Under the pieces are notes generated by a model. It searched no databases. It saw only the letters and a list, made by a program, of their open reading frames with translations, and had not been told where the DNA came from. The position numbers and the translations under genes are program-made. Of a stretch of DNA of 58,092 nucleotides, positions 1,686 through 56,741 are shown in pieces. How positions within the stretch are numbered: position 1 is the stretch's first letter; each line of letters begins with the position of its first letter. Source of the stretch: an uncultured Ruminococcus sp. (GTDB lineage Bacteria > Bacillota > Clostridia > Oscillospirales > CAG-272); contig CACWLT010000006.1 of assembly GCA_902761695.1 (NCBI GenBank), forward strand, positions 1 through 58,092, given 5' to 3'.

Positions 1686-1888
1686 TAATGCTAAATCCTT
1701 TCTAAGGGGATACGCGGCTTCTTGAAAGAAACCCAGAGCAGCAAGCTGCTCGGCAAGAACTTTATACTATCAACTGGTGCAGCGTTCTTCTTTACGTGCA
1801 GCACGGGGTAACGTACAGCGCATTATTTTCAGGTTATGCTTTTCGCGCATCATGGTCGGATTGCCCTTTTAGGCTGAGAAGAGCATAA
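1686..1888 (+). mobile_element. MITE-like TIR repeat, copy A (203 bp)
   Basis: Left end TAATGCTAAATCCTTTCTAAGGGGATACGCGGCTTCTTGAAAG. Right end CCCTTTTAGGCTGAGAAGAGCATAA is its imperfect reverse complement. Invariant core GTGCAGCACGGGGTAACGTACAGCGCA at 1796-1822. Starts 7 nt after the SBP stop codon. Confidence 0.75.
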
Positions 1889-1963
1889 GAAAACGGTAAA
1901 GGGTCTGCCCTGCGGTACTGATGTGCTGCGGGGCTTTTTGACACGGGGATTCTCTATGCGGGC

Positions 1964-1992
1964 TTGACAGGGTTTTGCGGGATTGCTATAAT
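1964..1992 (+). promoter_or_regulatory. Consensus SigA-type promoter
   Basis: TTGACA at 1964-1969, 17-nt spacer, TATAAT at 1987-1992 (perfect consensus); precedes the small ORF at 2023 and the GH gene at 2200. Confidence 0.65.
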
Positions 1993-2199: not shown

Positions 2200-3081
2200 A
2201 TGACCATACTTGACGGAATCAAATCTTCGCGGCTGATCCCGGGGGACGGTACCCATGCGTTCCGGGATCCGGCGGTGATCTGCCGGGACGGGGTTTTCCG
2301 GCTGTACTGCACCTATGTGGAGACGGAGGCGGACGGCGGGATCTATATGTACACCGTTCTCATGCGCTCGACCGACCTCGTGCATTGGAGCGCGCCCCGG
2401 AAGCTGACGCCGCGGGACCGGGCCCTCAATTTCTCCAGTCCCGGAAACATCGTGGAATGGCGGGGGGAATACGTGATGTGCCTCCAGACCTACTGCCGGG
2501 AGAACGGGGAGAAATACGGGAACGAGCGGAGCCGGATCTGGACCATGCGCAGCCGGGATCTGGAAAACTGGGACGAGCCCCGGCCCCTGATGGTGAAGGG
2601 GGACGTGCCGTTATCCGGGATGGGGCGGATGATCGATCCCTATCTGATTTACGACGGGGCGTCGGGGCTCTGGAACTGCTTCTACAAGCAGAACGGGGTG
2701 AGCAGGTCTACCTCGCCGGATCTGGAGCGCTGGGAATACCGGGGAGCCTTTCCGGGCGGGGAGAACGTCAGCGTCATCCGGCGGGGCGGGGAATACCTCA
2801 TGTTCCACTCCCCGGAGAACGGGATCGGGGTGAAGCGGTCCTTCGATCTTGAGCATTGGGAGGACGCCGGGGCGCTTCTGACCTTCGGGCAGCGGGACTG
2901 GCTCTGGGCGAGAGGGCGTCTGACGGCGGGATTTGTTCTGCCCTATGAGGAGGACGGGGAGACGGTTTATCTCATGTTCTTCCACGGCACGGGGCCCGAG
3001 GACGAGCGCGTGGATTTCGACAGGAACGCCTCCATCGGGCTGGCCTGGAGCCGGGATCTGGTGCGGTGGGAGTGGAGATAA
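2200..3081 (+). CDS. Beta-propeller glycoside hydrolase-like protein (GH43/GH130-clan-like), cytoplasmic
   Basis: 293-aa ORF with no signal peptide. Repeated blade-like segments (FRDPAVICRDGVFRLYCT, MIDPYLIYDG.SGLWNCFYK, GEYLMFHSP, VYLMFFHG). The family call is approximate. Confidence 0.5.
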   Translation: MTILDGIKSSRLIPGDGTHAFRDPAVICRDGVFRLYCTYVETEADGGIYMYTVLMRSTDLVHWSAPRKLTPRDRALNFSSPGNIVEWRGEYVMCLQTYCRENGEKYGNERSRIWTMRSRDLENWDEPRPLMVKGDVPLSGMGRMIDPYLIYDGASGLWNCFYKQNGVSRSTSPDLERWEYRGAFPGGENVSVIRRGGEYLMFHSPENGIGVKRSFDLEHWEDAGALLTFGQRDWLWARGRLTAGFVLPYEEDGETVYLMFFHGTGPEDERVDFDRNASIGLAWSRDLVRWEWR

Positions 3082-3272
3082 TACTAATCTCATTCAAAAA
3101 GGGAAAACGCGGCTTCTTGAAAGGGAAGCCCCGCTCAACAAGTTGAGGGGCAAGAACTTAAATAATCCACTGGTGCAGCTTTCTTTTCTTCGTGCAGCAC
3201 GGGGTAACGTACAGCGCACTTATTTAGCTTTGCTTTTTCCATGTATTTGCTGGATTGTTGAGAATAGTATAA
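3079..3272 (+). mobile_element. MITE-like TIR repeat, copy B (194 bp)
   Basis: Begins TAATACTAATCTCATTCAAAAAGGGAAAACGCGGCTTCTTGAAAG, where the TAA is the stop codon of the upstream gene. Same 27-nt core. Right end TTGAGAATAGTATAA. Confidence 0.75.
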
Positions 3273-3298: not shown

Positions 3299-5548
3299 AT
3301 GTCAAGACATATTTACACGTTGAACCGGCCGGCGGGGTGGCCGCATGAGGAATGGCGGGAGGCGCTGCCTCTGGGGAACGGGCTGACGGGGGTTCTCATG
3401 CCGGGGTCCATCGCGGCGGAGCACATCACCTTCAACCGGCACGATCTCTGGCACGGGGGAAACGAGGGCGGGGAGATCCCGGACATCTCGGAGACCTTCC
3501 GGGCCATGCGGGAGGCCGTCCGGAGAGGGGATTACACCGCCGCGAATCAGGACAATCTCATGGCCGCGCTGAATGAGGCGGGATATCACGCGGGGCCGGA
3601 GGTTCCTTATCCGCTGGGGTGGCTGAACCTGACCTTCACGCCGGAGGGGATGTTCCGTCACTACCGGCGTGGGGTGAACATGCGGACCGGGGAGGCCTTC
3701 GTGACGTTTGAAATCGGGGGCTGCCGGTATGAGCGCCGGATGTTCGTCTCCCGGGCCTGCGACGCGGCCGTGCTCCGGATGACGGGGGAGCGGGAATTTA
3801 CGGCGCTCTTTGATTTAGCGCTCTTCTCCGAGGAGGGGGAAGCGGAGATCACGGACCGGTCCATCCGGAAAGCCTCCCGGGACGGGGACACGGCGGTGAA
3901 CGTGCTGTTCCGGGGAGACTTCCGGAGCGAGGTGCGTGGGGACAAGATAGCGGTGACGGGGCGGGACTGGACGGTGCTGATCCGCTGTTCGTCCCACGGG
4001 TCGCGCCTCTCCCTTGACGATATTGCCGGGGAGAGCTGGGAATCCCTTCTGGAAAAGCACACGGCGCTTTACACGCCCCTTTACGACGCTGTCGACATCG
4101 AGCTGGCGGGGGAGGAGGACTTCGAAGCTTCCAATGAGGAGATGCTGGACGCGGCCTACGACGACGAGGCGTCTCCCGCGCTGATCGAGCGGCTGTGGCG
4201 GTTCGGGCGGTATCTCTTTATTTCGGCGGCGTCGGGGAAGGGCAATCCCGTTCCCCTCTACGGGCTCTGGCACGGGGCGGACGGGCTTCCCTGGGCGCAG
4301 TACGTGGCCAACGAGAACGTGGAGATGACCTACTGGCACGTCATGGCGGGGGGAATGGCCTGGGCGGTGCCTCCGCTGCTCCGGTACTACGCGGCGCATC
4401 TCGACAAATTCCGGGAGTGCGCGCGGCGGATTTTCGGGATGCGGGGGATCTGGATCTCGGCCTACACCACCCCGAACACGGCGGGGCCCTGCGTTCCGGT
4501 GGCGGTGATCGGCAACTGGATCAGCTGCGCGGGATGGCTCTGCCGCCACTTCTGGGAATACTATCTCTACACCGGGGACGAGGCGCTGCTGCGGGAGGAG
4601 ATTCTGCCCTTCATGCGGGAGGCGGCCCTCTTCTGGCTGGACTATGCGGAGGAGGATGAAAACGGTTTTCTGGAGCTTTTGCCCTCGGTTTCTCCGGAGA
4701 ACACGCCGGGCAATCTTCTGCACCTGCCCACGAAATCCGCCACGGGGCATCCCTGTCCGGCGGTGAAGAACGCGACTATGGATTTTGCCGTCATGAAGGA
4801 GCTCTTCACCAATCTGCTGGAGGGGATGAGGGTCACGGGGCTTTACGCGGACGAGGCGGAGGAATTCCGGTCGGCGCTCGGGAAGATCCCGGCCTATCAG
4901 ATCAACGAAGACGGCGCGGTGAAGGAATGGATGGATCCGGGGCTGACGGACAACTACGCCCACCGGCATCTCTCCCACATCTATCCGGTCTTTCCGGGGA
5001 ACGAGGTGACGGCGAAGAGCGATCCCGCGCTGTTCGAGGCCTTCCGGCGGGCGGTGCATCTCAGGGAGCTGGGCAGTCAGTGCAACTGGTCCCTCACGCA
5101 CATGGCGGCCATTTACGACCGGCTGGGCGAGGGGGAGGCGGCGGCGGAATGCCTGGATCTGCTGGCAAAGAGCGTGCTTTTGCCCTCCCTCTTCACGGTG
5201 TGCAACGACTGGAGGCACATGGGGATGACGCTGGACTGGGTGAACGTGCCGGTGCAGCTGGACGCGGTGTTCGGAACGGTGAACGCGGTGCAGGAGATGC
5301 TGTTCCGCTGGGAGAGGACGGCTTTGTCCCTGCTTCCCTCGCTGCCCGGGCGGCTGAAATCAGGCTATGTCCGGGGCATGGCGTTCCCGGGAGGGACTGT
5401 CGACATCCGATGGGGAGAGGACGGTCGGGGTGCTGTCTTGATTCGGGCGGTACGGGGAGTGGACACGGACGTTCTGGTCAGAGGCAGGTTGGTCGGGCAC
5501 ATCCGGCTGGCGGCGGGCGAGAGCGGGACCGTGGAGTGGAATGGGTGA
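3299..5548 (+). CDS. Glycoside hydrolase family 95 (alpha-L-fucosidase/galactosidase type)
   Basis: ORF 2933..5548 trimmed to the ATG at 3299 (AGGAGA upstream). N-terminal WREALPLGNGLTGVLMPG and the ~750-aa layout are typical of GH95. No signal peptide. Confidence 0.75.
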   Translation: MSRHIYTLNRPAGWPHEEWREALPLGNGLTGVLMPGSIAAEHITFNRHDLWHGGNEGGEIPDISETFRAMREAVRRGDYTAANQDNLMAALNEAGYHAGPEVPYPLGWLNLTFTPEGMFRHYRRGVNMRTGEAFVTFEIGGCRYERRMFVSRACDAAVLRMTGEREFTALFDLALFSEEGEAEITDRSIRKASRDGDTAVNVLFRGDFRSEVRGDKIAVTGRDWTVLIRCSSHGSRLSLDDIAGESWESLLEKHTALYTPLYDAVDIELAGEEDFEASNEEMLDAAYDDEASPALIERLWRFGRYLFISAASGKGNPVPLYGLWHGADGLPWAQYVANENVEMTYWHVMAGGMAWAVPPLLRYYAAHLDKFRECARRIFGMRGIWISAYTTPNTAGPCVPVAVIGNWISCAGWLCRHFWEYYLYTGDEALLREEILPFMREAALFWLDYAEEDENGFLELLPSVSPENTPGNLLHLPTKSATGHPCPAVKNATMDFAVMKELFTNLLEGMRVTGLYADEAEEFRSALGKIPAYQINEDGAVKEWMDPGLTDNYAHRHLSHIYPVFPGNEVTAKSDPALFEAFRRAVHLRELGSQCNWSLTHMAAIYDRLGEGEAAAECLDLLAKSVLLPSLFTVCNDWRHMGMTLDWVNVPVQLDAVFGTVNAVQEMLFRWERTALSLLPSLPGRLKSGYVRGMAFPGGTVDIRWGEDGRGAVLIRAVRGVDTDVLVRGRLVGHIRLAAGESGTVEWNG

Positions 5549-36170: not shown

Positions 36171-37418
36171 ATGGACATGGAGAGGAAAGCAGTGAAACAG
36201 GTCATTTTGCGGTTTATGGCATGCAGCGATCTGCACTACAAGAACGATCCCGCCTGCCGGGAGAAAAAGCGCTTCGAGGAGGGGCTCCGCCAGCTGTATG
36301 CCTACGCGGATTCCCAGCCGTACAAAGCCGTAGATGCGGTGTACATCGTTGGGGATTTCACCGATCAGGGCACCATGGAGCAGATGACGCTGGTGAAGGA
36401 GTCCCTGGACCGGGGACTGCGGCCGGGAACGGAGGCGGTGCTCTGCATGGCGTCCCACGAATACGGCGGTCCGGGCGGACAGACGGGGGCGCGGGAGCGG
36501 TTCGGACAGATCTTCGGGCAGGACGCGGACACCCATCGCGTCATCCGGGGGTTTCACTTCATCGCCGTGTCCACGGACGAGGACTGCCGGTTCTGGGAGC
36601 CGCAGGTTTCCTTTGCCGCCGGAGCCCTGGAGGCTGCGCACGAGGATGATCCCCGGCGGGCGGTCTTTTTCTTCCAGCATCCCCATCTCACGGACACGGT
36701 GTACGGAAGCATCGTATGGGGGGAGCGGGACCTGAATCCGACCCTGTACAACTATCCGCAGGTCATCGATTTCTCCGGCCACTCCCATGTTCCGATCAAC
36801 GACCCGCGCTCCATCCATCAGGACTATGTCACGTCGGTGGGCACGGGAACCTTCAGCTATTTCGAGATGGACGAGTTCGACAAGATCTGCGGTACGTTTC
36901 CGCCCGACGCTGGGGAGGCGGCCCAGATGCAGATTGTGGAGGCCTTCGACGACGGCAGCGTGCTGATCAAGCCCTGGGATGTGCTCACGGGGCAGCCCTT
37001 CCACGAAGGATGGACGGTGGAGCGGCCCTGGGATCCGGCGTCCTTCGTCTACACGCGGCCCATCCGGTACCGGTTCGCGGAGAATCAGAAGCCCCGGTTC
37101 CCGGAAGGCGCGGTCCTCACGGCGGAGCAGACGGAGGCGGGCTTCAGGCTGACCTTCGATCACGCGGAGAAGGTGATGGGATCGGACGGCAGGGAAGAAG
37201 ACGTGGACGACTACGTCATTACGGTCCGGGACGGGGACGGGATCCTGTGCCGCCGGTTCGTGATCTGGTCGCCCTATTACCTGACGCGGCGGCCGGAGAA
37301 GATGAGCTACGATTTCCCGAAGCTGAAAAAGGGCGTCTACACCGTGGCGGTGAAGGCCCGGGGTTTCTGGCGCAACGAATCGGAGGACTGCCTCAAAGCG
37401 GAGCTGATCGTTGAGTGA
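36171..37418 (+). CDS. Calcineurin-like metallophosphoesterase with a C-terminal beta-rich domain
   Basis: FMACSDLH, VGDFTDQG, SHEY, FFFQHPH and FSGHSHVP motifs. The true start may be the GTG at 36192 (GGAGAGGA upstream). Confidence 0.7.
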   Translation: MDMERKAVKQVILRFMACSDLHYKNDPACREKKRFEEGLRQLYAYADSQPYKAVDAVYIVGDFTDQGTMEQMTLVKESLDRGLRPGTEAVLCMASHEYGGPGGQTGARERFGQIFGQDADTHRVIRGFHFIAVSTDEDCRFWEPQVSFAAGALEAAHEDDPRRAVFFFQHPHLTDTVYGSIVWGERDLNPTLYNYPQVIDFSGHSHVPINDPRSIHQDYVTSVGTGTFSYFEMDEFDKICGTFPPDAGEAAQMQIVEAFDDGSVLIKPWDVLTGQPFHEGWTVERPWDPASFVYTRPIRYRFAENQKPRFPEGAVLTAEQTEAGFRLTFDHAEKVMGSDGREEDVDDYVITVRDGDGILCRRFVIWSPYYLTRRPEKMSYDFPKLKKGVYTVAVKARGFWRNESEDCLKAELIVE

Positions 37419-37598
37419 ACTAATCTCAATCTAAAAGGGAAACGCGGCTTCTTGAAAGAAGCCTGGCAAGAACTTTCAAAATACCCTGGTGCAGCTTCCT
37501 CTCAAAATGCAGCACGGGGTAACGTACAGCGCATTTTTCAGGTTCTGCTTTTTCACACGCCTTTATCAGATTTCCCTTTATAGCTGAGACAAGTATGA
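37416..37598 (+). mobile_element. MITE-like TIR repeat, copy C (183 bp, compact form)
   Basis: TGAACTAATCTCAATCTAAAAGGGAAACGCGGCTTCTTGAAAGAAGCC… where the TGA is the upstream stop codon. Same 27-nt core. Right end TTTCCCTTTATAGCTGAGACAAGTATGA is the inverted left end. Confidence 0.8.
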
Positions 37599-37657: not shown

Positions 37658-39313
37658 ATGAACAAAAACACCTTCTGCAATCCGGTGAACATCAACTATC
37701 AGTATCAGCACTACTTCAACGGGCGGGAATCTGCGGATCCGGCGGTGGTGCTGTTCCGGGGGGAGTACTTCCTTTTCGCGTCCCACGGCAGCGGGTACTG
37801 GGTCTCGGGGGATCTGGTGAACTGGGAATTCATCGAGGTGGATCTCGAGAAGCAGCCGCAGTTCCGGCTCTTCGCCCCGGCCACGATGGTGCTGGGTGAC
37901 CGGCTCTATCTGGCGCACTCCGAGGGCGGGGACATGATGTACTCCGAAAATCCCCGGGATCCGGATTCCTGGGTCAATCTGGGCCATCCCTACGTCTGGA
38001 ACGATCCGGCTCTGTTTCTGGACGACGACGGCAAGGTATACATGTTCGACGGGCTGAGCAATGTTACGCCGCTGCGGGTAGCCCGGCTGGATCCGGACAA
38101 CGATATGGCGCTGCTGGAGGGGCCTGTGGACATCTTCCAGTCGGACAAGGACAGCCGTGGCTTCGAGCGGCTCGGAGACTGCAATGAGATCAACGACCGG
38201 AATCCCTCCCTCGAGGGGCCGTGGATGTTCAAGGCGGGTGGGAAATACTACCTGACCTACGCCGTGCCGGGAACGGAATTTTCGTCGTACTGTGACGGAT
38301 GCGCCGTGGCGGACGAGCCGATGGGGCCCTACCGCTTCTGCGAGAGCAGCCCTTCCGTCTACAAGGCTACGGGATTTATGCGGGGCGCGGGGCACGGATG
38401 TCTGTTTGCCGACAAAAACGGGAACCTCTGGAAGATGGATACGGTCTCCATCAGCGTGAACCACCTCTTCGAGCGCCGCCTCTGCCTCTTCCCCTCGAAG
38501 ATCGGGGAGGACGGGGAGCTCTACACCAACACCGTCCGGGGGGACTATCCCATGCGCATGCCCCACGCGGTGAAGGATCCCTTTGACGAACTGGACGCGG
38601 GCTGGCAGCTGCTTTCCCTCGGCGCGGCGTCCGGGGCCTCCTCCGTGCTGGACGAAGAACATGGTCCGGAGAAGGCGGCGGACGAGAACATGAAGACCTG
38701 GTGGAGCGCTGCTACCGGCGATCCCGGCGAGCGGATCTCCTTCGATCTGGGGCGGACGGCGGAGGTCCGGGCGGTTCAGGTGAATTTCGCCGATCAGGAC
38801 ACGGAGCGCGTCACGGGGCGGCACAACGGCTTTTCTTGGCGGTATCTGATCGAGGCGTCGGAGAACGGGGCGGACTGGTTCCCCCTCGTCGACCGGCGGG
38901 ACAACGATGACGACCGGCCTCACGAGTATTTCGAGCTGGAGGAAGGGAAGCGTCTGCGGTATTTCCGGCTGACCAACTGCGGCGCGGTCCCGGCGGGCGG
39001 TAAATTCGCCGTCAGCGGCTTCCGCGTGTTCGGACCGGCGGAGATCCCCGCGCCTGCCTCCGCTCCCGTCTTCCGGGCGGAACGCTGTGAGGACGAGCGG
39101 GACATGCGGGTGAGCTGGGATCCCGTGGAGGGGGCCGAGGGCTATATCATCCGCTGGGGCGTCAACCCGGAGGAGCGGAACACCCACTGGCAGGTGATCG
39201 GGGACTGCGCGGCCGTGATCCGGTGCCTGACCCGGGGCGTGCGGTATTACGTTTCCGTGGACGCCTACAACGCGGGCGGTCTGATCCGGGGAACAGAGAC
39301 CGTCCGGGTCTGA
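37658..39313 (+). CDS. GH43 glycoside hydrolase with a C-terminal discoidin (CBM32-like) and Fn3-like domains
   Basis: ADPAVVLFRGEYFLF, NDPALFLDDDGKVYM and EGPWMFKAGGKYYLTY (GH43 propeller motifs); WWSAATGDPGERISFDLG…VQVNF (F5/8 type C-like). Confidence 0.75.
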   Translation: MNKNTFCNPVNINYQYQHYFNGRESADPAVVLFRGEYFLFASHGSGYWVSGDLVNWEFIEVDLEKQPQFRLFAPATMVLGDRLYLAHSEGGDMMYSENPRDPDSWVNLGHPYVWNDPALFLDDDGKVYMFDGLSNVTPLRVARLDPDNDMALLEGPVDIFQSDKDSRGFERLGDCNEINDRNPSLEGPWMFKAGGKYYLTYAVPGTEFSSYCDGCAVADEPMGPYRFCESSPSVYKATGFMRGAGHGCLFADKNGNLWKMDTVSISVNHLFERRLCLFPSKIGEDGELYTNTVRGDYPMRMPHAVKDPFDELDAGWQLLSLGAASGASSVLDEEHGPEKAADENMKTWWSAATGDPGERISFDLGRTAEVRAVQVNFADQDTERVTGRHNGFSWRYLIEASENGADWFPLVDRRDNDDDRPHEYFELEEGKRLRYFRLTNCGAVPAGGKFAVSGFRVFGPAEIPAPASAPVFRAERCEDERDMRVSWDPVEGAEGYIIRWGVNPEERNTHWQVIGDCAAVIRCLTRGVRYYVSVDAYNAGGLIRGTETVRV

Positions 39314-51987: not shown

Positions 51988-53235
51988 ATGAACAGGAAGA
52001 ATTTTGCGTTTGACGGATCCATGACGAGAGAGGTGCTGGAAAACTACCTCTCCCGGGCTGTCACCCACACGGGGCTGACCTACGACAACATGGCGCCCTC
52101 CCGCACCTTTGCGGATGATCTCCGGATGCTCCTTTCCGAAGGGGCGAAGTTCGTGGGGCGGTGCGGGCTGATCTGGCAGGCGACGGACGAAAAAGAGCAC
52201 CGCCGGGTCTCGAGGGAGAGAGCGGAGATCATCCACCGGGCAGATCCCGAGATCATCCTGCAGGGCTGTATTTTTGAATGTATCTGGAAGCCCTACATCG
52301 ACAGCCTGCCCGTTCCCGCATGGGTGTTCGAGGCGTTCGGCCTGCCTGTTGAAGCGCGGAATTTCAGCTACGACGCCATGCTCTACCCGGACGGCACATT
52401 TGTGAATCACTGGGGGATAAACGGCGGATCGGTGGAGGACATCCGGCAGCTCGAGACCCGGATGTACATCTATTACCGCGCCCGGTGCTACATCGACGAC
52501 GGGTTCGAGGCCCTTCACTTCGGGCAGGTCCACCTGATTGGGGCGAAGGACGAGGGCTTCCTTTACTGGAAGGAGACGCTGGACCGGGTGCGAGCTTATG
52601 CGAAAGAACACGCCCGGCGGCATTTCGTCCTCTGCGACGCCCACACCCACGGGATCACCGTGGACGGCGTGTCCCTCTTCGACTACAACGCATGGCCCCT
52701 GCGATTGAAGGAGATCCCGGATCAGCCGCTGGCCTGCGTGCTGGAGGAAGGGTACAACGACAGCATCTGGGGACGGTCGAAGGGCGGCATGACTCCTTCT
52801 GGATGGTACGCAGACTCCCTGCCGTATCTGGTGGAGTTCGACAACTTCGGCAGACGCCCGGACGCCCCGGTGCCGACCCTCGACAGCCACTACGCCTGGG
52901 GCTACGACGAGATCGACTGGCTCATGCTGCACAAGAAGGAGGAACGGGCGGCGATCATCCGGTATGTGTACGATTTCGTCCGGGCACACGGCGGGCACCT
53001 GGAAATGCCTTCCCGCCGCTGTCTGACGGAGGAGTATGAATCGGTCTGGGCGCACCCGGACACGGACTGGCTGGACCGGGTGGCGAAGGACGAATTCCTG
53101 CGGTACACGGTGGACGAGGACGGAAACGCGCACATCCTCCGCCGGTATTACAGCGCGAACAACCCGTCGGACGGCTGTCCCTTCGGGCTGGGCGACGAGG
53201 AGATTATCACGGAGCTCTGGCGCGGGGAAGAATAA
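51988..53235 (+). CDS. Hypothetical 415-aa cytoplasmic protein (possibly TIM-barrel glycan-active)
   Basis: Long ORF in the coding frame of a GH island, with no recognisable motifs. Its TAA stop lies inside the terminal repeat of MITE copy D. Confidence 0.3.
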   Translation: MNRKNFAFDGSMTREVLENYLSRAVTHTGLTYDNMAPSRTFADDLRMLLSEGAKFVGRCGLIWQATDEKEHRRVSRERAEIIHRADPEIILQGCIFECIWKPYIDSLPVPAWVFEAFGLPVEARNFSYDAMLYPDGTFVNHWGINGGSVEDIRQLETRMYIYYRARCYIDDGFEALHFGQVHLIGAKDEGFLYWKETLDRVRAYAKEHARRHFVLCDAHTHGITVDGVSLFDYNAWPLRLKEIPDQPLACVLEEGYNDSIWGRSKGGMTPSGWYADSLPYLVEFDNFGRRPDAPVPTLDSHYAWGYDEIDWLMLHKKEERAAIIRYVYDFVRAHGGHLEMPSRRCLTEEYESVWAHPDTDWLDRVAKDEFLRYTVDEDGNAHILRRYYSANNPSDGCPFGLGDEEIITELWRGEE

Positions 53236-53388
53236 TACTATTCTCAGTCTAAAAAGGAAATTTGAATAAGGTATGGGAAAGCAGAACCTGAGAAAATGAG
53301 TTGCACGTTACCCCGTGCTGCACTTTGATAAGGTCCGGGCTTCCCTTTCAAGAAGCCGCGTTTCCCTTTTAGCTTGAGATTGGTATTA
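53233..53388 (-). mobile_element. MITE-like TIR repeat, copy D (156 bp, internally shortened, reverse orientation)
   Basis: Plus-strand ends are TAATACTATTCTCAGTCTAAAAAGG … CCCTTTTAGCTTGAGATTGGTATTA. The core variant is GTGCAGCACGGGGTAACGTGCAACTCA on the minus strand. Both flanking convergent stop codons lie within the termini. Confidence 0.8.
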
Positions 53389-54546: not shown

Positions 54547-55511
54547 GCCTTCCTCCTCATCCACCCCGCCGGCAGATCGTCGAGCGGTTCCGGCAGGGTG
54601 AGTTTCTTCCCCACCTCGGCGAAGGCGGCGCGGAGGTTGTCGTCCACCGATCCGTCCGCACGGGGGCTGATGTTGTTCATGAAGTTCACGTTCTTCGAGA
54701 AGCAGTCCTCTGCCAGCTCCACGATCCAGTCCGCGGACCGGGGCGGCGTTTCGGGATCCGTGGCCCGCCAGAACCACGTCCCGGTCATTTTCTGGCAGAG
54801 GATCCCGGGGCCGGAGAACTCCCCTTCCAGCTTCTGTCCCGCGCCGCCCTCGTAGAAGCAGATGTCGGAATGCTCGATGTCCTTCGTCCATCCGATGCAG
54901 AGGGAGAGGCAGTCCGGCTGGAGGGATTTCACAAGGCCGTCGATCTCCTCAAAGGGCAGGGCTTCGTAGGACGGTCCGCCCCAGGGGGAGCTCCACCCGT
55001 CGAACATGATGAAGGGGATCTCGCCGTAGTTCGTGAGAAGCTCCGTGATCTGCCCCTTTACGGCCGCAACCTGCTCCGGGGTGCAGCTGCGCCGTCCGAA
55101 GCCCGCCGTCAGATCGAGGATGGAAAAATACAGTCCCGCCACGATCCCCGCCTCCCGGAACGCCGTCAGATATTCCTTTACCACATCCGTTTTGTTCGTC
55201 GCGTTGCGGACGCAGTGCTCGGAGTACGCCGTGGGCCAGGTGCAGAAGCCCTCGTGGTGCTTGGTCGTATAGGCGGCGAAGCGGCATCCCCCGGCTTTCG
55301 CGGTTTCGGCCCACTGACGGCAGTCGAGGTGTGTCGGATTCCAGTCCTTTTCATTGAAGGGGTATTTCCGGGGCTCGTTCCCGTTTTCGTGCATGAACTC
55401 CCAGTCCTCGGTGTCCCCGGTGTTGAACTGGACTGCCGCGCTGTTCCAGTGGATGAAGGTCCCCATGCGGAGGTTGATGAAGTTTTTCTGTAATGTCTCA
55501 AGATGCGTCAT
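54543..55511 (-). CDS. GH29 alpha-L-fucosidase (catalytic domain only, 322 aa)
   Basis: MGTFIHWN, TTKHHEGFCTWPTAYSEHCVRNA and LYFSILD motifs. Confidence 0.7.
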   Translation of the reverse strand: MTHLETLQKNFINLRMGTFIHWNSAAVQFNTGDTEDWEFMHENGNEPRKYPFNEKDWNPTHLDCRQWAETAKAGGCRFAAYTTKHHEGFCTWPTAYSEHCVRNATNKTDVVKEYLTAFREAGIVAGLYFSILDLTAGFGRRSCTPEQVAAVKGQITELLTNYGEIPFIMFDGWSSPWGGPSYEALPFEEIDGLVKSLQPDCLSLCIGWTKDIEHSDICFYEGGAGQKLEGEFSGPGILCQKMTGTWFWRATDPETPPRSADWIVELAEDCFSKNVNFMNNISPRADGSVDDNLRAAFAEVGKKLTLPEPLDDLPAGWMRRKA

Positions 55512-55552
55512 GATGATGGATCCTTTCGTTTCGGGCTTGCGGTGCCGTTCCC

Positions 55553-55581
55553 ATTATACAGGATCCGCGGAGGCATTTCCA
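55553..55581 (-). promoter_or_regulatory. Minus-strand promoter for the GH29/serine hydrolase pair
   Basis: Read on the minus strand: TGGAAA (55581-55576), 17-nt spacer, TATAAT (55558-55553). Confidence 0.45.
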
Positions 55582-55602
55582 CCCCTTTCGCGCAATTCGT
55601 TC

Positions 55603-55631
55603 AAACGGAGTACACAAAGGTGTGGTACAAT
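55603..55631 (+). promoter_or_regulatory. Extended -10 promoter for the esterase gene
   Basis: TGGTACAAT with the -10 at 55626-55631; the -35 is weak. Confidence 0.35.
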
Positions 55632-55658
55632 GGGACAAATCAGGAAGGAGGCTTTGTT

Positions 55659-56525
55659 ATGTCCGAATGGAAACGCATTCCCGACCGGTATCGGGAGTCG
55701 GCTGAACCGGAGAAGAGCGGCACTCTCCGAGAATTTGCCTACACTGACCGGGGTACGCCCCGCCGCGCGCTGGTCTATCTGCCAAACGGTTATGAGGAAG
55801 AAGGGGAGCGGCGGTATCCGGTTCTGTTCCTCATGCACGGCGGCGGGGGGAACGAGGAAGAGTTCTTCGGGGGCCTGGACGCGAAAATGCCCCTGAAGCC
55901 CATGCTGGACCGGATGATCGGGGAGGGACTGGTACGGCCCCTCATCGTCGTAACGCCCACCTTCAATCGGCCTGTGGATGAAGGCGTGAACCCCGACGCG
56001 GTGCGGGTCCATGCCGGGGATGCCGCCGCGCTGACCGCCGTATTCTGGCGTGAGCTTGAAGAATCCCTGATCCCGGCGGTGGACGCGGCCTTCCGGACGG
56101 AGGGGAACCGCGATTTCCGTGCCTTCGGCGGATTCTCCATGGGCGCGGAGGCCACCTGGAGCGTGCTGTGCCGGGGAGGGGCTGCTGTCCGGTACTATCT
56201 GCCCATGAGCGGGGACTTCTGGGCCGTGAGCGTCAAGGGCGGCAAGGACCACACCGCCGAGACCTGCGACCGGCTCATCGACGGGATCCGGGAACGGGGG
56301 CTTTCGCCGGAGGATTACCGGGTGTTCGCCGTCACCGGAGAGCAGGATATCGCCTATGAGGCCATGAAGCCCATGACGGAGGAGCTGCTCGGCCGGGCGC
56401 CCTGGTTCCGGAGCGCGGACGAAGGGGGCAACCTGACCTGGCGCGTCTCCCCCGGCTGGCATGCCTACGAGTGGTGCTGGGACTATATCGCTCTGGCCCT
56501 GCCGGAGTTCTTTCCGGGGGCGTGA
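55659..56525 (+). CDS. Alpha/beta-hydrolase esterase (CE1/feruloyl-esterase-like)
   Basis: ATG at 55659 (GGAAGGAGG upstream); YPVLFLMHGGGGNEEEFF; GFSMGA is the GxSxG nucleophile elbow. Confidence 0.7.
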   Translation: MSEWKRIPDRYRESAEPEKSGTLREFAYTDRGTPRRALVYLPNGYEEEGERRYPVLFLMHGGGGNEEEFFGGLDAKMPLKPMLDRMIGEGLVRPLIVVTPTFNRPVDEGVNPDAVRVHAGDAAALTAVFWRELEESLIPAVDAAFRTEGNRDFRAFGGFSMGAEATWSVLCRGGAAVRYYLPMSGDFWAVSVKGGKDHTAETCDRLIDGIRERGLSPEDYRVFAVTGEQDIAYEAMKPMTEELLGRAPWFRSADEGGNLTWRVSPGWHAYEWCWDYIALALPEFFPGA

Positions 56526-56722
56526 TACTAATCTCAAGCTAAAAGGGGAACGCGGCTTCTTGAAAGAAACCCAGAGCAGCAAGCTGCTCGGCAAGAACTT
56601 TAAAGTACACTGGTGCATTTTCCTTCTCAAAGTGCAGCACGGGGTAACGTACAGCGCATTTTTTCAGGTTTTTTTTTCACACATCTTGGTAAGTTTGTCT
56701 TTTTTTGGATGGGTATAGTATA
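56523..56722 (+). mobile_element. MITE-like TIR repeat, copy E (about 200 bp, degenerate right end)
   Basis: TGATACTAATCTCAAGCTAAAAGGGGAACGCGGCTTCTTGAAAG, where the TGA is the esterase stop. The internal hairpin GAGCAGCAAGCTGCTC is identical to copy A. Same 27-nt core. The right terminus GGGTATAGTATAG only partly mirrors the left. Confidence 0.7.
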
Positions 56723-56741
56723 GAACCCGGGCGTCATGAGC

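Follow-up and report, generated by a model that had tools for sequence, protein, structure and literature searches.

A probable miniature inverted-repeat transposable element with a covarying, genus-wide 5' module in an uncultured rumen Ruminococcus

The described repeats which come closest to the element treated here are Correia/NEMIS of Neisseria, RUP of pneumococcus and ERIC/IRU, all of them bacterial MITEs (transposable elements of miniature size with inverted repeats); Correia and RUP duplicate TA at the target. Our element was found in a stretch of 58,092 nucleotides of an uncultured Ruminococcus sp. (contig CACWLT010000006.1; the whole stretch is called the window), where the region 1686-1888 holds copy A (1689-1885, forward strand) of a repeat of 150-199 nt which is present five times (copies A-E). 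It shares with the three families a length of 100-300 nt, the lack of coding capacity, terminal inverted repeats (TIRs) combined with a short target site duplication (TSD), tens to hundreds of intergenic copies, subfamilies formed by internal deletion, and co-transcription with neighbouring genes. In contrast to the TA of Correia and RUP its TSD is 3 bp long and reads T-N-A. It also differs from Correia, RUP and ERIC in its strong preference for stop codons, with one orientation favoured, in being without a known cognate insertion sequence (IS), and in its 5' third, which is a separately evolving module common to several elements with unrelated interiors across the genus.

BOX of Streptococcus pneumoniae and the mosaics of repetitive extragenic palindromes (REP/BIME) resemble the element in another way: they are modular with optional middle modules, have hairpins with compensatory changes, are located at gene ends, and a role in mRNA stability has been proposed for them. 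Unlike our element BOX and REP have neither TIR nor TSD, and REPs go with RAYT transposases, of which none was found here. To our knowledge neither BOX nor REP carries a mirrored third purine tract. Such a tract recalls the triple helices of the ENE (element for nuclear expression) and MALAT1 type. Read on the bottom strand, the module has the same order of pyrimidine tract, (stem-loop), pyrimidine tract, short loop and purine tract, and its first tract is parallel-complementary to the purine tract as U.A-U and C+.G-C triples require. The 5-7 potential triples are comparable to the about five of an ENE, and the module is, like some ENEs, carried by a transposable element. The review PMC7583470, which cites Tycowski et al. 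(2016) on ENEs of plant and fungal transposons, names ENE-type stability elements in viral and vertebrate RNAs and in plant, fungal, slime-mould and fish transposable element RNAs, but gives none from bacteria. In contrast to ENE and MALAT1 the triple helix of the module is a prediction from sequence covariation, the strand mostly co-transcribed with genes is the Y-R-R (pyrimidine-purine-purine) purine motif, which is not established for RNA, and poly(A) tail and flanking ENE stems are lacking. Finally, the Firmicute small RNAs (sRNAs) with C- or CU-rich loops (RsaE/RoxS type) have a pyrimidine-rich stretch between short complementary segments, as the element does; the element differs from them in being multi-copy mobile DNA, in a loop that is not conserved in a sister subfamily, in a closing helix without covariation, and in that no promoter or terminator of its own was seen.

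A preliminary description of the region proposed a structured RNA of sRNA design. We find it probable that 1686-1888 represents a single copy of a MITE, a transposable element which is non-autonomous, and not an sRNA gene. The core 22-mer of the repeat has five matches in the window against none expected (0 in 100 shuffles), and the motif of the first hairpin has six against 0.47 expected. A profile built from the five window copies was searched with nhmmer over the genome carrying the window (G000, a metagenome-assembled genome (MAG), 83% complete, 437 contigs), which gave 103 matches spread over many contigs; in the same genome the 27-nt core has 76 matches with at most 3 mismatches, against 0 for the reversed control. 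The TIRs are roughly 20 nt long: the consensus start TACTAATCTCAAGCTAAAAGG agrees with the reverse complement of the consensus end CCTTTTTAGGCTGAGAATAGTA at about 20 of 23 positions. The outer 3-bp flanks are identical in 23 of the 37 complete copies (TGA 9, TAA 6, TCA 5, TTA 2, TTT 1) where 23% would be expected (p=4e-7). The combination TGA...TCA was never seen in the 37 copies, which means that the T-N-A flanks are a direct duplication of the target and not part of the TIR. The element is thus short (<500 bp), non-coding and dispersed, and in size, copy number, TIRs and a TSD of fixed length (3 bp) it agrees with what defines a MITE.

The insertions are not placed at random with respect to genes. 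In G000, 28 of 67 left ends abut the in-frame stop codon of a co-oriented open reading frame (ORF) with 100 or more codons; among right ends this is seen in 3 of 50, and the orientation bias is 28:3 (p=5e-6). Among the complete copies 19/37 sit on a stop codon where about 16% would be expected (p=5e-7), this expectation being the share of TAA and TGA stops among the usable non-coding T-N-A sites under a crude gene model. One other context analysis based on a crude gene model was unreliable, owing to antisense ORFs in a GC-rich genome, and was not used. Copies at the stop codon of a co-oriented gene are read through as the start of the 3' untranslated region (UTR) of the upstream gene; copy A lies inside such a 3' UTR since the host terminator is located 3' of it.

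A second dispersed repeat of ~300-420 nt is even more abundant in G000, with more than 100 blastn matches (e.g. C25:6201-6620, C264:2830-3270 and C311:1-262); it contains GC-rich hairpins, and its ends resemble the TIRs of the MITE family. Another species (G004; L032/L039/L068) has a sister MITE of ~220-300 nt in about 64 copies with the same TIRs, a TGA TSD and the same 5' module (class TTTCTT/AAAGAA, hairpin 2 GCTCAA/TTGAGC) around a completely different interior, so that module and TIRs travel with different cargo.

The comparison of copies also bears on the 27-nt core GTGCAGCACGGGGTAACGTACAGCGCA, which the preliminary description had singled out as nearly invariant in the window. It is identical in copies A, B and E, has one change at the first base in C (ATGCAGCAC...) and three changes in D, so the observation stands. 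Over the 37 complete copies it is not the most conserved block of the element: GCAAGAAC diverges by 0.3%, hairpin 1 by 2.0% and the 27-mer by 4.7%, while the spacer, the CU segment and the 3' half diverge 12-20% from the consensus. When the differences are split into shared variants, which are at the level of subfamilies, and private variants, which arose after insertion, the core has private changes in 14 of 985 cells against 46 of 2388 in the variable parts (p=0.39), whereas hairpin 1 and S3, the purine tract closing the module, have 7 in 1146, about one third of the rate in the variable parts (p=0.0017). The 27-mer probably looks invariant because young copies share source copies, and not because of selection on each copy; a block that seems constant within a young family of repeats should not be taken as evidence of selection. 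Outside G000 the core-bearing subfamily was found only in G057 and G056, in a single copy of G004 and in RUG12348, a near relative recovered by exact match, and the 27-nt core and the 'CU-rich' segment would be lineage-specific cargo of one subfamily. A mini-hairpin in the core, GUGC..ACG-GGGUAA-CGU..GCGC, given by RNAalifold, was considered as a reason for the conservation and rejected, as the A-to-T change in G056 and the variant in G004 break pairs without compensation.

The 5' third of the element, ~50-70 nt, has a history of its own. It consists of a purine-rich leader AAAGGGGAAACGC, hairpin 1, an optional hairpin 2 and S3, so that the order after the leader is hairpin 1, optional hairpin 2 and then GGCAAGAAC; the general layout is AAAGGGGAAACGC - GGC[Y-tract]G..loop..[R-tract]GCC - (T or hairpin 2) - GGC[R-tract]C - TTT. 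Hairpin 1 has a homopyrimidine 5' arm, a loop of the UGAA type, a homopurine 3' arm and a GGC/GCC clamp. A covariance model (R1) built from the 5' part of the element and searched against the genomes of relatives found the module in 38 of the 53 genomes available for the genus, where the copy number of a single genome can exceed 90; outside the genus it was found in 1 of 97 other genera sampled in the order and, as a single copy, in one further genome of the class. The module is a building block which is genus-wide and older than the element.

An alignment of 37 module copies from about 30 genomes shows that compensatory changes maintain both 5' hairpins. Over the two helices 97.3% of the cells are paired and 10/12 pairs have two-sided changes; none of 500 column shuffles reaches the observed values, and controls slid along the alignment are at most 62% paired. 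The tract of helix 1 has pyrimidines throughout on its 5' side and purines throughout on its 3' side; the only exchanges in it are from C-G to U-A, whereas helix 2 also shows flipped pairs. The suggestion that a changed hairpin-2 stem with preserved pairing reflects true conservation of structure is therefore borne out by these figures, and the covariation holds for both hairpins when more copies are aligned. The two stems on which it was based were read correctly: copies A and E have CCAGAGCAG-CAAG-CTGCTCGG (1733-1753 in A), copy B has CCCCGCTCAA-CAAG-TTGAGGGG, and C and D are without hairpin 2. The first hairpin, described as GGCTTC/GAAGCC, is in A and E GGCTTC/GAAACC with a C.A mismatch. 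A choice of strand based on the asymmetry between G.U and C.A was dropped, the independent events being too few (3 against 2).

Hairpin 2 is the more variable of the two. At least eight stems are found in the genus (GAGCAG, GCACAG, GCTGAA, GCTCAA, CACTCAG, CCTGACG, GAGACA and AACAAG), and the loop is nearly always CAAG. Within G000 only two variants of the stem occur beside copies without it: hairpin 2 is present in about 60 of the 88 copies parsed and missing from 28, about 56 have GAGCAG/CTGCTC and minor variants of it, two have GCTCAA/TTGAGC, and a third, in C5, has GCGCAA/TTGAGC. Metagenome contig Ga0310697_10737603 (L123) carries the very insertion of copy A, with the same flanks and the same copy-A-specific variants, without hairpin 2. 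Element and immediate flanks agree with the window to 100% except that GAAGCC-T replaces GAAACC-C plus hairpin 2. The sequence shared on each side is only 16-19 nt, which makes an assembly chimera at k-mers of 21 or more unlikely. Hairpin 2 would thus be a cassette which swaps between copies, probably by gene conversion.

The module was also seen in other surroundings. At least 20 copies are present in G143, which belongs to a different family of the same order (L112-L122), and the six inspected are all TTCTTT/AAGAAA; since the 96 other sampled genera of the order have none, this patchy spread suggests horizontal transfer. A phage contig of 90.7 kb (IMGVR_UViG_3300028888_000097; L138:4730-4850) has the module together with a core-like AAGCACGGGGTAACGTGCAG between the TAA stop of one gene and the ribosome-binding site of the next, and is a possible vehicle between lineages. 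Other genomes of the genus have composite elements with the module inverted at both ends (L072, L073, L075, L087, L088); the ends of the L072 composite are of mirror-related classes, TTCTTT on the left and TTTCTT on the right. In yet another genus genome (L079:~1460-1510) a tandem of 5-6 units of GGGGGAAC is located immediately upstream of the module and takes the position of the TACTAATCTCA-type end.

The third segment of the module follows a rule of its own. S3 covaries with hairpin 1 as the parallel complement of its pyrimidine arm S1, that is, as the mirror image of its purine arm S2. About ten S1/S3 classes were found. Four of them, TTCTT/AAGAA, TTTTT/AAAAA, TTTTTT/AAAAAA and TTTCTTT/AAAGAAA, read the same in either direction; six others, TTCTTT/AAGAAA, TTTCTT/AAAGAA, CTTTT/GAAAA, TTTTTC/AAAAAG, TTTCTC/AAAGAG and TTTTCT/AAAAGA, are asymmetric and therefore decisive between a mirror and other relations. 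Several classes coexist in single genomes. An alignment-free pattern search, read by eye, showed the rule to be obeyed by 148 of 150 listed sequences. Aligned in parallel, S1 and S3 are 98.6% complementary with 23 double-change cells in three of four positions, and 0 of 500 shuffles reach the percentage paired, the double-change cells or the covariation score; in the antiparallel sense they are 83% complementary with one double-change cell, and the best slid register, 94.5%, comes from the symmetric classes only. S3 as a direct repeat of S2, or as a Watson-Crick partner of S1 in an alternative hairpin or attenuator, fails in three or more classes, among them the asymmetric TTTCTC/AAAGAG, TTTTCT/AAAAGA and CTTTT/GAAAA. 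A pairing of S3 with GGTTCTGC in the 3' half was also rejected, because it is specific for the G000 family and the interiors of other families differ.

For an intramolecular triplex textbooks require that a homopurine tract be repeated both in inverted and in mirror orientation, and the sequence has a homopurine:homopyrimidine helix and a mirrored further tract of matching length. By the strand-orientation rules given in PMC7583470 the top strand, in the order Y-R-R, is of the purine motif, in which the third strand is antiparallel to the purine strand, and the bottom strand, in the order Y-(stem-loop)-Y-loop-R and with parallel complementarity of its first tract and its purine tract, has the U.A-U and C+.G-C arrangement of ENE and MALAT1. 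The position of hairpin 2 coincides with the turn from the duplex to the putative third strand. We therefore put forward, tentatively and as a possibility with less than even chances, that the module as RNA or single-stranded DNA may fold into an intramolecular triple helix, with hairpin 1 as the duplex and S3 as the third strand. As part of the MITE reading, persistence or spread of the element would require the module to adopt a fold in single-stranded form, and the most likely such fold has S3 along hairpin 1 and hairpin 2 as the turn. The triplex could block 3' exonucleases just after stop codons, or it could be the structure recognised by the mobilising enzyme.

A number of points weigh against this picture of a MITE with a triplex-forming module. 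The copies are related by descent, so the ~10 S1/S2/S3 classes represent about nine independent events and not hundreds, and two of the listed copies break the mirror rule of S3. Taken over the whole element RNAalifold gives a weak consensus (-9.55 kcal/mol, covariation term +0.23), the folding z-scores are modest (mean -1.5 on the plus and -2.2 on the minus strand) and the structures differ between copies; a structure signal is seen in the module only. An autonomous element with matching TIRs was not found in G000, G004, G056, G057, G058 or G143, all of them MAGs, which usually lose IS copies; the search covered TIRs in G000 and G004 and the surroundings of DDE_Tnp_1, DDE_Tnp_4 and rve matches in seven genomes. 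An IS5-like pseudogene in G004 and an IS3 in G056 were rejected as sources of the transposase, their ends being unrelated. The element would be moved in trans by a DDE-type transposase that was not found in the genomes searched. Nor was the empty site of copy A recovered: the locus is covered by no more than two metagenome contigs, each of which has the insertion.

The alternative which survives best, and which is compatible with a MITE, hypothesizes that the module acts in cis at the RNA level after co-option by the host: hairpin 1, with hairpin 2 or without it, would block 3'-to-5' exonucleases after the stop codon or end transcripts and so stabilise the upstream coding region, an effect that REP/BIME and some MITEs have. 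Of 38 module copies from about 30 genomes, 24 lie at most 60 nt downstream of the end of a long co-oriented ORF, most copies adjacent to a stop codon place the Y-R-R strand in the mRNA, and the orientation bias in G000 points the same way. UGAA and CUUG are stable tetraloops; UGAA is the loop of hairpin 1 on the top, transcribed strand in nearly all classes, and CUUG that of hairpin 2 on the other strand. The threefold depletion of private mutations in the module at resident loci speaks for such a function, but it could equally stem from gene conversion, which the swap of the hairpin-2 cassette demonstrates. Against this reading, neither hairpin is followed by a U-tract on the top strand, scans for terminator-like and promoter-like sites inside the element yield no more than shuffled sequences do, and copy A retains a host terminator downstream. 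It should also be noted that the long-form subfamily has proliferated with the C.A mismatch in hairpin 1 on the top strand. A cis-acting role of this kind is conceivable, though we would not bet on it.

It has also to be considered that S1, S2 and S3 are sites in duplex DNA for a protein, a transposase or a nucleoid protein, and that the covariation records co-evolution of protein and DNA. The three blocks are subterminal, where transposases bind, and a degenerate GCAGAAC is seen by eye at a similar distance from the 3' end. Furthermore a mirror repeat is a palindrome in the weak/strong alphabet (A/T against G/C), so a reader of the minor groove might see a symmetry in it. Base-specific reading in the major groove, however, cannot equate AAAGAA with AAGAAA, and the coexistence of classes in one genome (T5, T6 and TTTCTT in G002, five classes in G053) would call for several matched proteins. 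The stem of hairpin 2 is free in sequence, with only the pairing kept. We find this explanation unlikely.

The sRNA reading of the preliminary description holds that a trans-acting sRNA is derived from the 3' UTR and that its CU-rich apical loop, closed by GTGC/GCAC plus CCC/GGG, pairs with Shine-Dalgarno regions in the manner of the C-rich loops of Firmicute sRNAs. It is true that the gene context has many copies co-transcribed with the upstream gene, that the segment is pyrimidine-rich in the copies of G000 and G057, and that GTGC and GCAC are present and complementary. The 'CCC' arm, however, exists in only 2 of 20 scored copies, its middle base being A in the other 18, and in 22 copies the seven proposed pairs show no two-sided change, the variation only breaking pairs; the RNAalifold consensus does not predict the helix. 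In the G056 subfamily GCAC has become GCTC with the partner T unchanged, and one copy has GTTC for GTGC, again uncompensated. The loops are CU-rich in G000 as described, but they go back to one ancestral sequence, CTT(C/T)CTTCTCAAAG, with few substitutions and are not independent CU-rich solutions; they are lost in the G056 subfamily, where the segment reads GAACTGC, GAATCGC or similar. The CCTCC (CCUCC) of an anti-Shine-Dalgarno sequence is contained in few copies. With no covariation in the helix and loops that are variants of one sequence, the sRNA design is not supported. To this should be added that about 100 copies per genome of a transposable element is unlike an sRNA gene, that copy A is located upstream of the host gene's own terminator, and that no Rfam family reaches its gathering score in the window, a relaxed threshold giving only a chance match to Phe_leader (E=1.9). 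Consensus scans found no promoter-like site inside copies A, B and E, the only site within an element being a 9/12 match on the minus strand of C; a candidate outward promoter at the junction of 3' TIR and TSD (TTGCCT-17-TATAAN) was unsupported, being below the scan threshold in every window copy. We regard a trans-acting sRNA as very improbable. A reading of the repeats as palindromes of the REP/BIME type, which a RAYT (Y1/HUH) transposase would have spread, and not as a MITE with TIRs and TSD can practically be dismissed: the short hairpin module, the 50 to >90 copies per genome in both orientations, the modular organisation and the occasional inverted pairs at the ends of composite elements would fit, but no Y1_Tnp (PF01797) match was found in five module-rich genomes (G000, G004, G056, G058 and G143; four at least 93% complete) while control genomes score, and Y1 elements are without the TIRs and 3-bp TSDs that are clear in the families of G000 and G004.

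The features of copy A and the other copies are collected in Table 1. The window copies sit in a glycan-utilisation island with flanking genes at 195-1676, 2200-3078, 3299-5545, 37658-39310 and 55503-56522; among the flanking genes of the island are a lipoprotein without Pfam match, a GH43-like gene, GH95, GH43 with an F5/8 type C domain, and an esterase.

Table 1. Positions of copy A, its parts and surroundings, and of copies B to E in the window
Feature	Position	Strand	Remarks
Left TSD (TAA) of copy A	1686..1688	+	same triplet at 1886-1888; 6 nt past the lipoprotein gene stop TAA 1677-1679
5' TIR of copy A, variant b: TGCTAAATCCTTTCTAAGGGGA	1689..1710	+	pairs with 1864-1885; the genome has two 5'-end variants
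Hairpin 1: S1 GGCTTCT (pyrimidine arm), loop TGAA, S2 AGAAACC (purine arm)	1716..1733	+	one C.A mismatch in the subfamily of copy A; genus-wide covariation, one pair C-G 19 : U-A 17
Hairpin 2: CCAGAGCAG-CAAG-CTGCTCGG, optional cassette within the S2-S3 turn	1733..1753	+	at least 8 stems in genus; 6/6 pairs with double changes
S3: GGC-AAGAA-C, purine tract	1752..1760	+	mirror of S2, parallel complement of S1; 0.3% divergence among copies
CTGGTGCAGC and 'CU-rich' segment GTTCTTCTTTAC (helix and loop of the preliminary description)	1774..1795	+	no covariation
27-nt core GTGCAGCACGGGGTAACGTACAGCGCA	1796..1822	+	matches in the genome carrying the window: see text
Variable 3' half of element	1823..1863	+	consensus divergence 20%
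3' TIR CCCTTTTAGGCTGAGAAGAGCA	1864..1885	+	reverse complement of family consensus matches 5' TIR (see text)
Right TSD (TAA) of copy A	1886..1888	+	
Host intrinsic terminator, outside element	1907..1934	+	12-bp stem then TTTTT; downstream of copy A
Perfect TTGACA-17-TATAAT promoter, outside element	1964-1992		downstream of copy A
Copy B	3082..3268	+	TSD TAA 3079-3081 (stop codon of GH43-like gene) and 3269-3271; hairpin 2 GCTCAA/TTGAG
Copy C, short form without hairpin 2	37419..37595	+	TSD TGA 37416-37418 (stop codon) and 37596-37598
Copy D, internally deleted	53236..53385	-	between convergent stop codons 53386-53388 and 53233-53235
Copy E, long form	56526..56720	+	TGA 56523-56525 (stop codon) left, TAG 56721-56723 right

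MITEs with RNA hairpins are ordinary. What is unusual here is that a short module has spread through a whole genus of uncultured rumen Clostridia, and that three of its segments covary as a mirror and inverted repeat with strict purine/pyrimidine asymmetry between the strands, a relation which Watson-Crick pairing cannot explain and a triple helix can. If the triplex is real, no interspersed repeat that forms one would have been described in bacteria before, and the module would be a natural, multi-copy bacterial test bed for nucleic-acid triplexes, in which dozens of natural 'compensatory mutants' (T5, T6, TTCTT, TTCTTT, TTTCTT and others) are already at hand. The module might then also give mobile DNA a novel means of protecting or marking transcripts at the ends of genes.

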